Positions 27,687 to 36,954 of a stretch of 64,000 nucleotides of DNA are shown in pieces. The DNA comes from Deltaproteobacteria bacterium (GTDB lineage Bacteria; Desulfobacterota; Desulfobaccia; Desulfobaccales; 0-14-0-80-60-11): contig JASEFS010000001.1 of assembly GCA_030018495.1 (NCBI GenBank), positions 161,285 to 225,284 of the forward strand, written 5' to 3'. The notes under the pieces were generated by a model that saw only the letters and a list, made by a program, of their open reading frames with translations, made no database searches and was not told the DNA's origin. Every line of letters begins with the position of its first letter. The stretch's first letter is position 1. A program made the translations under genes and the position numbers.

Positions 27687-28472
27687 ATGACAAGAAGACG
27701 CAAAAAGAAGGACAAGCGCCGTTTTCGCGGGGTGTATCTCCTCCCTAACCTCATCACCACGGGGAGCCTGTTCGCGGGATTTTATGCGATTGTGGCGGCC
27801 ATCAACGGCAAGTTCCACGCGGCCGCGGTGGCCATCCTGATATCCCTGCTGCTGGACGGACTGGACGGCCGCGTGGCCCGCATTACCCGCAGCTCCTCGA
27901 ATTTCGGGGTGCAGTATGACTCCCTGGCCGACTTGGTGGCTTTCGGCGTGGCTCCGGCCATCCTGGTGTATTTGTGGGCCTTAAAGCCCTTCAAACAGTT
28001 CGGCTGGGTGGCGGCGTTTTTGTTTGTGGTCTGCGGCGCGCTCCGGCTGGCCCGCTTCAACGTTCAGACCGGCACCATCGACCCCCGCTATTTCAACGGC
28101 CTGCCCATACCCGCGGCGGCCACCATGATCGCCACCTCCATCATTTTTTATTATGAAATCGGCGAATGGGCCCCGGAAAAGTACCTCTATATCCTGGTAA
28201 TGATTTACCTGCTGTCTTTCCTGATGGTGAGCAATATCAAATACGTCAGCTTCAAGAAGGTGGAGCTCTTCAAGCGCCATCCTTTCCAGACCCTGGTGGC
28301 CCTGGTGCTGCTGTTCGTGGTGGTGGCCACCATTCCGGAAACCATGGGTTTCCTGCTGATGGGCGCCTACGTGGCCTCGGGTCCGGTCAGCACCGTTTGG
28401 TACCTCAGGCAGAAAAGGGCGGAGGAAAAGGCGGAGGAAGAGACCCCGGCCCCGAAGCCCAGCGAGCCGTGA
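27687..28472 (+). CDS. pssA: CDP-diacylglycerol--serine O-phosphatidyltransferase
   Basis: CDP-alcohol phosphatidyltransferase motif DGLDGRVAR...SLADLVAFGVAPA. ATG 27687. Confidence 0.9.
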   Translation: MTRRRKKKDKRRFRGVYLLPNLITTGSLFAGFYAIVAAINGKFHAAAVAILISLLLDGLDGRVARITRSSSNFGVQYDSLADLVAFGVAPAILVYLWALKPFKQFGWVAAFLFVVCGALRLARFNVQTGTIDPRYFNGLPIPAAATMIATSIIFYYEIGEWAPEKYLYILVMIYLLSFLMVSNIKYVSFKKVELFKRHPFQTLVALVLLFVVVATIPETMGFLLMGAYVASGPVSTVWYLRQKRAEEKAEEETPAPKPSEP

Positions 28473-28506
28473 AGCTGATATGTCCAAGTAGATAATTGAA
28501 ATATCC

Positions 28507-29361
28507 GTGAAGCTATCGGTTGCTGATAACAACTCAAAAAAACTCGGCCCCTTTCTCTGTGATGCTATTGAGAAATCACAAGATGTGAGGATTGCTGTTG
28601 CCTTTATATCCAATAAAGGTATAAATTTTATTAGAAAATCGCTTGAATATGAACTTTTAAATTTAGGAACAATTGAATTTCTTATTGGATTGGATATTAA
28701 TTCAACAGAACCTAAAGCCATACAAAGCCTATTTGACCTTCAAAAGATTAGTGAAAGTTTAGAATTGTACTGTTATGCTTCACTAGAACCAGCTTCAATA
28801 TATCATCCTAAAATGTATCTTTGCAGAAATAATGATGATATTATCGCTATATTAGGTTCATCGAATTTGACAGAGGGAGGGTTAGTTAATAATATTGAAA
28901 TTAATATAATCATTGAATCAAATGAAAAAGAAGAAATAATTTCTGATATTTATGATACCTACAATAAATTGAAATTTCACCCAAAAAGAGTAATTCCTGA
29001 TCAGGAGTTTCTTGATATATACTTTGATTTGTGGTTAATAGAAAAGAAAAGCGCAAAGATTAAATCAAAGGATAGAAGTTATCAAGAATTAAAAACGAGT
29101 TTTCAAAAGAAGGTTGAGTCATTACAACGTCCTAAACCATCATTGAGAGATTTAGTTGGCTGGCCTAAAATAGTATATGAGCGTTTACCTGAAAAAGACT
29201 TTTCAAATGAACAGATATATAAATTTGAGAAAGAATTCCAAGACATGTATCCGGAAAACAAAAATATCCGGGCAAAAATCAGACAGCAGCTACAAGTACT
29301 CAGAGATATGGGGTTGATCAGGCATCTGGGCAGGTCACACTGGAAAAAAGTGGGATATTAA
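28507..29361 (+). CDS. PLD/HKD-family nuclease-like protein with C-terminal winged-helix-like tail, on an AT-rich islet
   Basis: Single HKD-type motif IYHPKMYLCRNNDDIIAILGSSNLTEGG. C-terminal NIRAKIRQQLQVLRDMGLIRHLGRSHWKK resembles Mrr-N/DpnI-type wH tails. Composition far more AT-rich than the flanks. Confidence 0.7.
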   Translation: MKLSVADNNSKKLGPFLCDAIEKSQDVRIAVAFISNKGINFIRKSLEYELLNLGTIEFLIGLDINSTEPKAIQSLFDLQKISESLELYCYASLEPASIYHPKMYLCRNNDDIIAILGSSNLTEGGLVNNIEINIIIESNEKEEIISDIYDTYNKLKFHPKRVIPDQEFLDIYFDLWLIEKKSAKIKSKDRSYQELKTSFQKKVESLQRPKPSLRDLVGWPKIVYERLPEKDFSNEQIYKFEKEFQDMYPENKNIRAKIRQQLQVLRDMGLIRHLGRSHWKKVGY

Positions 29362-29602
29362 GTATTGCTTTTTTAAAATATCCCTATAAAATCTTAAACA
29401 TTATGACTTCTGACAATTCGAAGGTTATCCAGGCATTAATCCTATCCTTGGCTCTCTTCTTAGCCTGCGCTTAGGCGCGAGGCACTTTCTTCCCATTCCC
29501 TAATCAGCAAAAAAGTGGTACATAATATAAGTTTCGGCCGTGGCCTGTTTGCGGCCTATGCTGTGAATTTACCGGTCATTGGCAATGGCCGAAAATTTTT
29601 CA

Positions 29603-29633
29603 CCGAAAACTGAAAACCGAAAACTGAAAACCG
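29603..29633. repeat. Heptamer tandem repeat, CCGAAAA family (about 4.5 units)
   Basis: ccgaaaa ctgaaaa ccgaaaa ctgaaaa ccg, ending 20 nt before the leuA ATG. Confidence 0.85.
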
Positions 29634-29653
29634 TATTTTGAGGAGGTGGCGCC

Positions 29654-31207
29654 ATGCCCGACAAAGTCGTAATTTTTGACACCACATTGAGAGACGGAGA
29701 GCAAACCCCCGGCGCGAGCCTGAACGTGGACGAAAAACTGCAGATCGCCCGGCAGTTGGAGCTCCTTAACGTGGATGTCATCGAGGCCGGGTTCCCCTTC
29801 TCCTCCAAAGGCGATTTCGAGGCCGTCAAGGCCGTGGCCCGGGAGATCAGGGGCACCCAGGTGGCGGCCTTGTGCCGGGCCAACTTCAAGGACATCGACG
29901 CGGCCTGGGAGGCCGTCAAGGAGGCCACCGCGCCCCGCATCCACACCTTTATCTCCACCTCGGACATTCACCTGAAATATCAGCTCAAGAAGACCCGGGA
30001 AGAGGTGTTGGAGCAGGCCGTGGCCGCGGTGTCGCACGCCGCCAAATACTGCGCCAACGTGGAGTTTTCGGCCATGGACGCGGGCAGAAGCGACCTGGAC
30101 TACGTGGTCAAGGTCTTCACCGCGGTCATCGACGCCGGGGCCACCACGGTGAATTTTCCGGACACTGTGGGCTACACCATCCCGCATGAGTTCGGCGCCA
30201 AAATCAAGTACTTGGTGGAGAATATCCCCAATATCCACAAGGCGGTGATTTCGGTGCACTGCCACAACGACCTGGGGCTGGCGGTGGCCAACACGCTGGC
30301 GGCCATCGTCAACGGCGCCCGCCAAGCCGAGTGCACCATCAACGGCATCGGCGAGCGGGCCGGCAACGCCTCCCTGGAGGAAATCGTCATGGCCCTGGCC
30401 ACCCGCAAGGACCTGTTCGATTATTACACGGAGATCGTAACCCAGTACATTTATCCAGCCAGCCGCCTGGTGAGCAAGCTCACCGGGGTGCTGGTCCAGC
30501 CCAATAAGGCCATCGTGGGGGCCAACGCGTTCGCGCACGAGTCCGGCATCCATCAGGACGGGGTGCTCAAGGAGGCCAGCACCTATGAGATCATGACCCC
30601 CACCGCGGTGGGCATCAAGAAGAGCTCCCTGCCGCTGGGCAAGCTCTCGGGCCGCCACGCGTTCCAAAAGAAGCTCCAGGAAATGGGCTTTTACCTCAAT
30701 GAAGACGAGCTCAACCGGGTGTTCGTGCGCTTCAAGGACCTGGCGGACCGCAAAAAGACGGTGTTCGACGAGGACCTGACCAGCTTGGTGGAAACCGAGG
30801 TCATTTACAAGTCGGTGCCCGAGCATTTCAAGCTGCTGGAGCTGGTGGTGCTGAGCGGCAACACGGTGAAGCCCTCGGCCAACGTGAAGATGGAGATAGG
30901 GGGCGTGGTGCAGGGGCCGTATTCCACCTTCGGGGACGGACCCATCGACGCCACCTACCGGGCCATCACCCACTTGGCCGAATCCAAGTGCACACTCCTG
31001 AAGTTCGCGGTGAGCTCCATCACCGGCGGCACCGACGCCCTGGGCGAAGTCTCCGTGCGCCTGGAAGAGGACGGCCACGTGGTCACCGGCCAGGGCGTGG
31101 ACCCGGACGTGGTCACGGCCAGCGCCCGGGCCTTTGTCAACGGCTTGAACCGCCTGCACTTTTTGAAGGAAGGCGGTCCCCGCAAAGGGAAGCCTGAAGA
31201 GTTGTAG
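29654..31207 (+). CDS. leuA: 2-isopropylmalate synthase
   Basis: [18 protein letters not shown]...[16 protein letters not shown]...; C-terminal LeuA regulatory domain. Confidence 0.95.
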
Positions 31208-34359: not shown

Positions 34360-35430
34360 TTAATGGGCCTGTTTGAGGGCTTCGGTGCGGTGGTGGGTGA
34401 TGAGCGCCTGGATGAATTCATCCAGGTCGCCCTCCAAAATCTCCGGCAGACGGTGGAGGGTGAGACCGATGCGGTGATCGGTGACCCGGCCTTGGGGGAA
34501 ATTGTAAGTGCGGATGCGTTCGCTGCGGTCGCCGCTCCCCACCTGGCTTTTGCGCTCCTGGGCGATCTCCCGCTGCTGCTCCTGCTGTTTGATGTCAAAA
34601 AGCCGGGCCCGCAGCACCTTCATGGCTTTGGCCTTGTTTTTGTGCTGGGATTTCTCGTCTTGGCAGGTGACCACCAGACCTGTGGGGATGTGGGTGATGC
34701 GCACCGCGGAATCCGTGGTGTTGACGTGCTGGCCGCCCGGCCCGGAGGAGCGGAACACGTCGATGCGCAGCTCTTCCGGGTTGATCTGCACTTCCACTTC
34801 TTCGGCTTCCGGAAGCACGGCAACGGTCACCGCGGAAGTGTGGATGCGGCCCTGGGATTCCGTTTCCGGCACCCTCTGGACCCGGTGCGTGCCGCTTTCG
34901 TACTTGAGCTGGCTGTAAACCCGGTCGCCGGAGACCGAAGCGATGATTTCCCTGAGCCCGCCCAAGCCGGTGGGTGAATGGGACATGACTTCCATTTTCC
35001 AGCCCCGGCGTTCGGCCAAGCGGGTGTACATGCGGAACAGGTCCGCGGCGAACAGGGCGGCTTCTTCGCCGCCGGTGCCGGCCCGGATTTCCAGGAGCAC
35101 GTCCTTCTCGTCGTTGGGGTCTTTGGGGAGCAGGAGGAAACGCAGCTTCTCTTCCACCTCATCCACCTGCTCCTTGAGGAACTGCACCTCTTCCCGGGCC
35201 AGGGCTTTGATGTCTTCGTCGGTGTCTTCTTTGAGGAGATTCTGGCTCTCGGCCAACTCTTTTTGAAGCTGCTTGTAGCGCCGGAAAGTCTGAATCAGGG
35301 GGGTCAATTCCGAGTGTTCTTTGCCGAACTTTTGATATTCCTCCTGATTGCGGATGACCTCCGGGTCGGCCAGGCGCTCCTCCAGCTGCTGGTATTGTCT
35401 TTCCAAGGATTCTAAACGATTTTCAAGCAT
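34360..35430 (-). CDS. prfA: Peptide chain release factor 1
   Basis: GGQ motif [22 protein letters not shown]1-type tripeptide context [17 protein letters not shown]. Confidence 0.95.
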
Positions 35431-35773
35431 ATCCTGTCTTTGCCCAGACGATGGAGACGATGCAGGTTTTCGCTCGCGGTCTGGTGGTGAGAAGTTCTGT
35501 TATCTTATTAAATATAATAGATATTTTCCTAAATTGCAATGAAGCCGGTGAGCTCGTAGTGTAATGTATTAAAATTTCGCCAGAATCCACAAAACCTTGA
35601 GAGTGGCCCAGGGTATGGAAGCGAGGATTCCTGACCATCTTGGAGTTTAGGGAAATAGCATCTTATGTGCTTGATATTTTATGTTGAATCTAATTTTCTC
35701 TTATGGCAGGATTAAATCAAAAGACAGAAAAATTATCATCATGTTAATTTTCTCGCTTGATTTTCGGTAAAGG

Positions 35774-36064
35774 GTGATGATAATAGATATACAAGAAATT
35801 AAAAGCCGAATTAGGAAGATTGCGCAAAAAGGAGTACATGGGATAGCCCTAACGAAACATTGCAAAAAGCAAATGGAGGAACGGGAGGTAGATATAATCG
35901 ACATTCTCAATGTTCTCAATTGGGGAGAGGTGGTTCACGATCCTGGCGAGAATGCCGATATGAAATTTAAAATCATAGGGGAGGACTTGGAAGGAGAGCC
36001 TTTATGCGTAGTCATAATTCTCCTTGAACAGGACTCCTTGCTCGGAATAACAGTTCATGGATGA
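35774..36064 (+). CDS. DUF4258-like putative toxin
   Basis: 96 aa with LTKHCKKQMEEREVDIIDILNVL (H..R/K.ER..I pattern). AT-rich. 6 nt upstream of an MqsA-type gene. Confidence 0.6.
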   Translation: MMIIDIQEIKSRIRKIAQKGVHGIALTKHCKKQMEEREVDIIDILNVLNWGEVVHDPGENADMKFKIIGEDLEGEPLCVVIILLEQDSLLGITVHG

Positions 36065-36070
36065 AGCTAT

Positions 36071-36571
36071 ATGAAAGAAATGATTTGCCCGAATTGTCAA
36101 AGGAAGCAAAAGATTCAACCCGGGGAATATCACTATACTGAGTCAGGGTTGCCGAATGTTTGGCTTATAGGGGTCGAAATCTTTGAGTGTGAGTGCGGGG
36201 AGAGCTTTGCCTTTATCCCTTGCATACAAGAGCTTCATAAGCTGATTGCTCATGAGCTGATAACCCAGGAAAATAGCTTATCTGGCCTGGAAATTCGATT
36301 CTTAAGGAAAACCATGGGCCTGAAAGCTAAAGATTTTGCTGAATTGCTTGGTGTAAAAAATGTCTCAGTTTCTCGATGGGAACATGGTGAATTTTCTCCC
36401 CCTGAGCCAACAGACCGCTTTATTCGCCTTTTCTACGCAGCAAATATGGGTTTGTCAGAGATAGCTCAGGAGCTTGCTAAAAACATTTTTCGCAAGCCCA
36501 AAAGGAAACAGGCACAGATAATCCGTCTTCCGATTGACAGGTTGAGTCGGGAAACTTGTATGAATGTATGA
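36071..36571 (+). CDS. MqsA/YgiT-type antitoxin (zinc ribbon plus XRE HTH)
   Basis: CPNCQ...CECGE zinc ribbon, then LRKTMGLKAKDFAELLGVKNVSVSRWEHG HTH. Confidence 0.75.
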   Translation: MKEMICPNCQRKQKIQPGEYHYTESGLPNVWLIGVEIFECECGESFAFIPCIQELHKLIAHELITQENSLSGLEIRFLRKTMGLKAKDFAELLGVKNVSVSRWEHGEFSPPEPTDRFIRLFYAANMGLSEIAQELAKNIFRKPKRKQAQIIRLPIDRLSRETCMNV

Positions 36572-36954
36572 AAATTGGCAGTTCAAGTTTTTAAGGCGGC
36601 CTACTCACGGGCCGCTTTTTCTTGAATTACTGGAAGAGGAACAGAGCATTCTTAATGATCATTCATTTTTTGAAAAATTAGAAAAACTTACCCTTAAAAT
36701 TCCTCCAAACTACCGACGAGCTAAAAAGTTTCATAGCAGACCTTGGCCGGGGGATTCCTCCTGATTGACACGGGTCGATGCCGGTCTTATTTTATAATAA
36801 GTTTGCAATCCCTTTAACAGGAGAAAAAACCCAACCGGAAGGCTTGTACGGCTTAACTGATTGCCATCTCAAGGGGCGGCCCGGGTCGCCTCTTTCTTTT
36901 TCTCAGATGGACCAACGGCAATTATGGAAGGCAGTCCGGTGGGAGCATATAGCA

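Follow-up and report, generated by a model that had tools for sequence, protein, structure and literature searches.

Fusions of a nuclease with a winged-helix (wH) domain have been sorted into five kinds, one of which, PLD-wH, comprised 27 members when it was reported (Helbrecht et al., Front Microbiol 2024; PMC11037411). Two cloned members, Aba4572I from Anaerolineaceae and CbaI from Chloroflexi, are presumed to be type IV enzymes that sense Gm6ATC (m6A being N6-methyladenine), and the PLD-wH clones other than the outlier Aba4572I, CbaI included, gave lower colony counts in Dam+ Escherichia coli (PMC11037411). In DpnI, the two m6A methyl groups occupy pockets walled by the recognition-helix residues E228, K229, R231, Q232, and Q235 (PMC3424567), and among nucleases with a phospholipase D (PLD)-type domain, SauUSI dimerizes via its PLD domains and BfiI is a dimer with one catalytic center that binds two sites (PMC7913695). 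Here, we describe a gene at positions 28507 to 29361 (plus strand) of a 64,000-nucleotide window, the whole stretch of DNA that was analyzed, on contig JASEFS010000001.1 of a Desulfobaccales bacterium. It lies between pssA and leuA, and its product is likely to be a stand-alone restriction endonuclease of type IV (modification dependent) that belongs to the PLD-wH class.

The gene starts with GTG, ends with TAA, and specifies 284 amino acids (aa) at a G+C content of 0.318 and a third-codon-position G+C content (GC3) of 0.27. It is the open reading frame (ORF) that holds the segment IYHPKMYLC...ILGSSNLTEGG, together with the C-terminal segment from which an earlier note, made from the letters of this DNA, had proposed a nuclease of the Nuc/BfiI type with a winged-helix-like tail. 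Profile searches of both halves gave matches above the curated Pfam cut-offs: PLDc_2 at residues 20 to 141 (39.7 bits; cut-off, 27) and RE_NgoFVII at residues 18 to 149 (28.7 bits; cut-off, 23.8) in the N-terminal half, and DpnI_C at residues 224 to 281 (73.7 bits; cut-off, 23; E value, 1.4e-20) in the other. The PLD domain was assigned to residues 1 to 142 (28507 to 28932, plus strand) on the basis of Pfam, the alternating strands and helices of an AlphaFold2 model, and a Foldseek match to SauUSI. In alignments of 49 and 118 full-length homologues, residues H100, K102, G117, S118, S119, N120, N129, E131, and N133 were invariant, and they align with HxK...GSSN...N.E.N of SauUSI. Of these, the HxK pair of the HKD motif (H100-P-K102; 28804 to 28812) falls opposite HAK of SauUSI, G117-S118-S119-N120 is encoded at 28855 to 28866, and the acidic residue E131 (28897 to 28899) lies 11 positions past N120, a spacing that we take to equal that between N111 and E122 in Nuc. 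The single motif that the earlier note had seen is thus a conserved property of the family, and a second HPK at residues 158 to 160 is not conserved at its lysine, leaving one conserved HKD per chain. An active site would therefore need a dimer, as in Nuc, BfiI, and SauUSI (PMC7913695). A public gene call made on identical DNA (locus L001, 10001 to 10495, equivalent to 28867 to 29361 of the window) begins at an internal TTG, so that just the C-terminal 164 aa remain and the motif is split at GSSN|LTEGG; automatic annotation therefore shows just a DpnI_C protein and hides the nuclease.

The C-terminal domain, encoded at 29176 to 29349 (plus strand; residues 224 to 281), is the winged helix of DpnI by sequence, profile, and structure, and hence a DNA-binding fold, as had been suggested. 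The earlier comparison with the tails of both Mrr and DpnI was borne out for DpnI, whereas no match to Mrr_N appeared in the Pfam search. A search with the single sequence matched DpnI (4esj) over residues 224 to 281 with an E value of 4e-08, which improved to 4.6e-11 with the family profile. In the alignment, DpnI residues E228, K229, R231, Q232, and Q235 correspond to A256, K257, R259, Q260, and Q263 of the window protein; the numbering of the DpnI PDB chain equals the published numbering plus 3, and the identities of all five pocket residues fit that offset. These residues are carried by the recognition helix (residues 254 to 267; 29266 to 29307, plus strand), which is nearly identical to that of DpnI (KIRQQLQ[IV]LRD), and K257, R259, Q260, and Q263 were invariant in the same two homologue alignments. 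Apart from one systematic difference, the alanine in place of E228, the DpnI reader motif appears essentially intact at the level of sequence. Between the two domains lies a helical linker (residues 143 to 222; 28933 to 29172, plus strand) with helices at residues 143 to 156, 166 to 181, and 190 to 205 and a low-confidence loop at residues 181 to 190, and its helices align with those that follow the nuclease domain of SauUSI.

Searches with the whole protein gave the same picture. A look-up of the exact 284-aa sequence returned no match. The single-sequence search of PDB recovered DpnI, SauUSI (residues 3 to 155), NgoAVII, and BfiI, and the family profile recovered SauUSI at 1.6e-12 (query residues 5 to 201), NgoAVII at 1.6e-05, and BfiI at 1.7e-03. 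The AlphaFold model, built on the 49 homologues, had a pLDDT of 92.4 and a pTM of 0.90, and it is laid out as a PLD-type alpha/beta domain (residues 1 to 142), three linker helices (residues 143 to 205), and a winged helix (residues 219 to 281; helix-strand-helix-helix-hairpin). Foldseek placed SauUSI first among PDB structures (E value, 2e-12; root mean square deviation, 2.6 Å over 176 columns), with further matches to NgoAVII (1.5e-09), NucT (1.9e-07), PLD3, BfiI (1.1e-06), and DpnI. In PADLOC, the best match was the C terminus of the mREase_II model for methyl-directed type II restriction endonucleases, ahead of the DrmC, REase_II, and PbeA PLD models.

Set beside the described systems, the window protein most resembles Aba4572I and CbaI, with which it shares an N-terminal PLD nuclease and a C-terminal DpnI-type wH in one chain of about 280 to 290 aa that is typically encoded alone; the source phyla also overlap, since homologues of the window protein with 45 to 46% identity come from Anaerolineae and Chloroflexota. 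It differs in residing in Desulfobaccales and at another genomic site, and none of the contexts of three Chloroflexota/Anaerolineae homologues matched the published CbaI neighborhood exactly. The architecture itself was already known, and by it the window gene joins the published class. With R.DpnI (type IIM/IIE; 4esj and 4kyw), the window protein shares a homologous C-terminal wH in which K229, R231, Q232, and Q235 are conserved, so that reading of fully methylated m6ApT would be expected, but the catalytic domain is PLD rather than PD-(D/E)XK and E228 is replaced by Ala; with PLD in that place, there would be no second methyl-specific reading, and metal-independent cleavage with cuts outside the site would be expected. 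Membership in the R.DpnI family proper was rejected, as the N-terminal half is PLD and DpnI matches just residues 218 to 281. The type IIS enzyme BfiI (2c1l) and Nuc/NucT likewise have a single-HKD PLD domain that needs a dimer to form one active site, and BfiI also has a separate C-terminal DNA recognition domain that serves as a tether to the site; however, the reader of BfiI is B3-like and specific for unmodified sequence, whereas the wH of the window protein is a predicted methylation sensor, and the similarity is weak (E value, 0.0017 with the family profile). SauUSI (type IV; PLD plus SF2 ATPase plus SRA; 7clg) is the nearest match, in solved structure and in sequence, to the PLD domain and its following helices, and it is modification dependent, as is predicted for the window protein, with its PLD domains forming the dimer interface. 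In contrast to SauUSI, the window protein has neither the ATPase/translocase nor the SRA domain, has 284 rather than 953 aa, and is expected to respond to m6A rather than to 5-methylcytosine or 5-hydroxymethylcytosine; an assignment to the SauUSI type (PLD-helicase-SRA) was rejected on the basis of the length and because the PLD part alone aligns. DrmC of DISARM was similarly rejected, with a score of 14.7 bits against NF038319 (cut-off, 133) and with psd, pssA, and leuA as neighbors rather than drmA, drmB, and a methyltransferase gene.

We suggest that two chains would pair via their single-HKD PLD domains to give one metal-independent active site, a composite of H100, K102, S118, N120, and E131 from both partners, as in Nuc, BfiI, and SauUSI; from the single HKD copy and from BfiI and SauUSI, cleavage would be expected to pass through a phosphohistidine intermediate. 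The recognition helix, through K257, R259, Q260, and Q263, would recognize the two N6-methyl groups of an m6ApT step methylated on both strands, with Gm6ATC, the Dam context, as the most probable setting. The binding of methylated incoming DNA, such as that of a phage or plasmid, would bring the nonspecific PLD site to the DNA, which would then be cut near, but outside, the recognition sequence. Such an enzyme would require a host without Dam-type methylation. Of this picture, the domains, their conserved motifs, the fold, the distribution among relatives, and the selection are shown, and the pairing of chains, the dependence on methylation and its context, the place of the cut, and a role in defense are inferred.

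The history of the locus was reconstructed by a scan of one genome per species, which yielded 38 loci with a relative of pssA, the closest all being metagenome-assembled genomes (MAGs) of Desulfobaccales/Thermodesulfobacteriota. The order psd-pssA-leuA is conserved among the relatives. L001 is the same DNA as the window (100% identity over 11.4 kb), and L002, a relative with 81.5% nucleotide identity, carries a 284-aa orthologue that is 78% identical and equally AT rich (G+C, 0.33) at exactly the same site, but at the 24 other Desulfobaccales loci covering the pssA-leuA junction, no homologue of the nuclease was found. The proposal of a foreign origin is upheld by this pattern together with the composition of the gene, and the comparison of junctions did not reveal an orthologue of native composition at every relative's junction. 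The left and right junctions are homologous throughout between the window and L002, whereas nuclease-free L004 departs at the pssA stop codon and rejoins near 29366. The full-length frame is intact in both the window and L002, and the ratio of nonsynonymous to synonymous substitution (dN/dS) between them was 0.146 over 284 codons, compared with 0.21 for psd, 0.17 for pssA, and 0.15 for leuA; synonymous divergence (dS) was 0.81 for the nuclease, 0.79 for pssA, and 0.60 for psd. These sequences fit one insertion that predates the separation of the window and L002 lineages, after which the gene descended vertically under purifying selection. Among the flanking genes, psd and leuA favor L002 and pssA favors L004 as the sister of the window; the three lineages are about equidistant, and so gain on the branch leading to the window and L002 is not polarized against loss in L004. 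Third-position differences between the window and L002 are symmetric (39 strong to weak and 37 weak to strong), and GC3 is 0.27 and 0.26 in the two genes, so there is no visible drift toward host composition. The usual reason for GC3 to stay this low is that mutation is biased toward AT and codon selection acts only weakly on a gene with little expression; alternatively, expression may be held low by selection.

The PLD-wH family proved to be broad. A word-indexed search found at least 262 clusters at 90% identity, of which nearly all of the best 120 had both Pfam domains and a length of 270 to 300 aa, so that at least 100 homologues share the length and both domains, and an exhaustive search of 50%-identity representatives found at least 48 clusters at E values up to 1e-30. 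The homologues come mostly from uncultured Chloroflexota, Thermodesulfobacteriota, and others, and they are annotated at source merely as "HKD family nuclease" or "phospholipase D-like domain-containing protein." The G+C content of the gene was below that of its flanks in 51 of the 53 metagenome loci with enough flanking sequence (medians, 0.44 versus 0.59), and 23 of 77 family loci had a GTG or TTG start. Members are usually solitary amid housekeeping genes, although some lie beside methyltransferases and a restriction-modification system. One homologue with 58% identity (P0003; L041 to L043) is inserted with equal tightness elsewhere, 35 nucleotides (nt) past the stop codon of one gene and with its own stop abutting the ATG of the next; it too has a GTG start and a G+C content of 0.32, in a host of 0.62. 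By eye, the leaders in the window (34 nt) and in L041 (35 nt) are similar, but a conserved cassette end was rejected for the family as a whole, because the upstream sequences of 77 loci share nothing. No full-length copy was found on mobile DNA among 72,556 plasmids and 50,697 phages; the sole full-length member found in IMG/VR (L127, 5001 to 5849; 39% identity) is on a 15-kb contig classed as viral. In a Chloroflexota MAG (L136, 4197 to 8614), the PLD-wH gene begins 10 nt after an N6_N4 methyltransferase gene and is adjoined by a second methyltransferase and a HinfI-like endonuclease, an arrangement that could signify a self-restriction conflict or offer a clue to specificity. Eight further proteins (P0168, P0174, P0180, P0186, P0208, P0213, P0218, and P0237) have a closely related PLD part (query residue 1 to about 180 to 220) followed by C termini of 100 to 250 aa without a Pfam match, which may be other, undescribed readers on the same nuclease chassis.

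Several observations weigh against assigning a type IV restriction function to the window gene. The canonical Asp of HxK(x)4D is Arg107 in the window protein, the GTG start has no recognizable ribosome-binding site, and the PLD half is missing entirely from one automatic gene call. The position equivalent to DpnI E228, A256 here, is occupied by Ala in 90% or more of family members, so that the modification or the sequence context could differ. No PLD-wH enzyme has been purified or shown to cut DNA, attempts at expression or purification having failed for both Aba4572I and CbaI, and no in vitro activity is on record for the class; Aba4572I is toxic even in Dam- cells (PMC11037411). The toxicity of PLD-wH proteins in vivo could come from tight binding rather than from cleavage, and the link of the window protein to Aba4572I and CbaI is indirect, by published architecture and overlapping source phyla. 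In the window, GATC is underrepresented (179 observed versus 260 expected; ratio, 0.69, and 0.52 to 0.81 in every 8-kb block) and is the most depleted 4-bp palindrome after CTAG; the ratio is 0.96 in the pooled relatives and is low in L004 (0.62) and L008 (0.68) too. Over these 64 kb, the depletion is suggestive of nothing specific about the Dam status of the host.

The replacement of E228, which in DpnI walls both methyl pockets, is also the chief reason to consider that the same architecture serves a type IV nuclease whose wH reads a mark other than Gm6ATC, such as m6A in a different sequence context or some other major-groove modification. The full m6A/GATC motif is present in only about 10% of wH fusion proteins, the remainder being without known specificity, and a possible CGm6ATCG conflict has been noted for Aba4572I (PMC11037411); the position of some family members 10 nt from an N6/N4 methyltransferase gene points the same way. 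However, the four other pocket residues are invariant in a helix nearly identical to that of DpnI, and the PLD-wH clones, bar the outlier Aba4572I, were toxic in Dam+ cells only (PMC11037411), so we regard another mark as quite unlikely. The toxicity of Aba4572I on induction in Dam- cells, together with two further PLD-wH proteins that were not expressible owing to toxicity (PMC11037411), would also suit a suicide nuclease of the abortive-infection type, in which a weakly specific or nonspecific PLD site, triggered when the wH meets methylated DNA or when expression rises, is unleashed on all DNA and kills the infected cell rather than selectively cutting the invader. The GTG/TTG starts of the clade, the want of an evident ribosome-binding site, and a GC3 of 0.27 against about 0.8 in the host are consistent with the very low expression that such a nuclease would call for. 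Yet no antitoxin or regulator adjoins the gene, in vitro cleavage by other wH fusion endonucleases is specific to the vicinity of Gm6ATC (PMC11037411), and the toxicity data come from overexpression in E. coli; we think a suicide function very unlikely.

A third alternative is that the gene is a noncatalytic or decaying remnant, a methyl-DNA-binding protein or pseudogene with no defense role. The automatic call on identical DNA that retained only the C-terminal 164 aa, the non-ATG start codon, and the lack of known in vitro activity in the PLD-wH family (PMC11037411) could be taken in that sense, but the frame is intact in the window and L002, dN/dS is comparable to that of psd, pssA, and leuA, the catalytic residues are all invariant, and at least 100 homologues retain the same length and both domains, which make a remnant highly improbable. 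A combined proposal, which we put forward tentatively and consider unlikely, is that the Glu-to-Ala change gives PLD-wH proteins a specificity different from that of DpnI, whether for another m6A context or by tolerance of hemimethylation, and that AT-rich codons, GTG/TTG starts, and the missing ribosome-binding site are a selected throttle on a toxic nuclease. The throttle is suggested by the GC3 of 0.27 that persists in two orthologues at a dS of about 0.8 in hosts with a GC3 of about 0.8. Type IV restriction directed at Gm6ATC remains the reading that we favor, and homology supports it well.

From the pssA stop codon (TGA, 28470 to 28472) to the leuA start (29654), there are 1,181 nt with a G+C content of 0.344 (28473 to 29653), compared with 0.578 for the whole window. 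In 200-nt windows, G+C falls to 0.25 to 0.35 between 28500 and 29400 and is 0.56 to 0.68 in pssA and leuA, and the GC3 of the nuclease ORF contrasts with 0.77 to 0.88 in neighboring genes. The flanking genes ilvC, psd, pssA, leuA, and leuC were confirmed by NCBIfam equivalog models (pssA, TIGR00473, 147.5 bits with a cut-off of 107; leuA, NF002086, 781.6 bits). The earlier note had marked an islet from about 28476 to about 29560 at about one-third G+C between flanks of about 60%; the sharp drop and the flanks were as described, but its right limit was not, because sequence from 29366 on aligns with nuclease-free relatives. On this alignment, the low-G+C region has two separate parts, an insert from 28473 to about 29365 and the native upstream region of leuA from 29366 to 29653. 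The insert spans 893 bp, made up of a 34-nt leader, the ORF, and about 4 nt. The AT-rich leader (28473 to 28506, plus strand), which runs from the pssA stop to the GTG and is homologous in L002 and not in L004, matches no promoter or terminator and lacks a good Shine-Dalgarno sequence. With no promoter or terminator predicted between pssA and the ORF, read-through from psd-pssA is the likely source of expression. An Rfam scan of 28300 to 29800 gave just two subthreshold, chance matches resembling small nucleolar RNAs. No methyltransferase, antitoxin, or regulator was found next to the gene among the ORFs and gene calls at the locus, so it stands alone, as the earlier note had stated. We propose that a bare 893-bp cassette would have landed between the pssA stop codon and the leader promoter of leuA, where it is probably transcribed by read-through from psd-pssA and where purifying selection has maintained it from a time before the window lineage parted from L002.

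The 10-mer CCGTGAAGCT, which had been put forward as a possible insertion scar, is indeed present in exactly two copies in the window, a statistically unusual number (chance expectation for a given 10-mer, 0.16), although each copy lies one base further right than first recorded. The first copy (28467 to 28476, plus strand) spans the pssA stop codon and belongs to the native end of pssA, where the empty site in L004 reads ACCCTGATGC, and the second (28505 to 28514, plus strand) spans the GTG start codon and is conserved at 7 of 10 positions in L002. A target-site duplication or scar was rejected, as the two copies, 38 nt apart, both sit at the left end of the insert instead of flanking it, and the repeat is not conserved in L002, which reads TTCTTAAATT and CTTTGAAACT at the two places. 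Microhomology involving the 10-mer at the time of insertion is possible, and we give the repeat no weight. An 11-mer that brackets the ORF (TTGAAATATCC at 28496 and TTAAAATATCC at 29373) was likewise dismissed as a chance occurrence in AT-rich DNA that is absent in L002.

The native flank upstream of leuA (29366 to 29653, plus strand; G+C, 0.42) is common to relatives without the nuclease and contains a promoter-like TTGCTT/TATAAA whose position is conserved in 12 relatives. It also contains a leucine-rich leader ORF (29403 to 29474, plus strand; MTSDNSKVIQALILSLALFLACA) of 23 codons, 5 of them for leucine, with a hairpin over its stop codon; 13 of 24 Desulfobaccales loci have a similar ORF, with a conserved leucine-rich C terminus (...LALL[R/L]LLPA*), some 200 nt upstream of leuA. 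A terminator-like hairpin at 29573 to 29591 (plus strand) is followed by a T run. By its sequence, the region looks like a leucine leader-peptide attenuator; it had no Rfam match, and its overall fold was no more stable than that of shuffled sequences (z, -0.5). Elsewhere in Desulfobaccales, the pssA-leuA junction is a variable slot of 91 to 2,902 bp (L003 to L034), which in about ten loci holds a GDSL-like protein of about 375 aa and in others MazE/MazF (L015), a YafQ-like toxin pair (L011), a DUF559 endonuclease-like protein (L030), or an AMP-binding enzyme (L012). The nuclease islet is the lowest-G+C stretch of the 64 kb, and the sole other region with more than two 300-nt windows below 0.45 is 35300 to 36700. 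The second islet (35640 to 36770; G+C, 0.33 to 0.45) encodes a DUF4258 protein (35774 to 36064) and a zinc-ribbon plus HTH_3, MqsA-like protein (36071 to 36571), which together are a probable toxin-antitoxin pair.

In summary, the window gene adds a member from Desulfobaccales to a recent, biochemically uncharacterized class of presumed m6A-dependent restriction enzymes, and the class, at no fewer than 262 clusters, far exceeds the 27 members of the original report. The locus provides a clean case of a promoter-less, single-ORF cassette of presumed defense function that occupies, with a precision of a few bases, the space separating a stop codon from a promoter. If altered specificity and a throttle on expression both apply, a tolerated promoter-less cassette could be a route to the first biochemical characterization of the PLD-wH class, and a nuclease that is directed by methyl-adenine, needs no metal, and cleaves outside its site would, if the proposal is true, be a useful reagent. 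The window and L002 orthologues supply evidence of purifying selection on the PLD-wH fusion that was previously missing from the literature, and this selection (dN/dS, 0.15), together with the invariance of the catalytic and reader residues, argues from sequence comparison that the class may well be enzymatically active despite the failure to purify its members.

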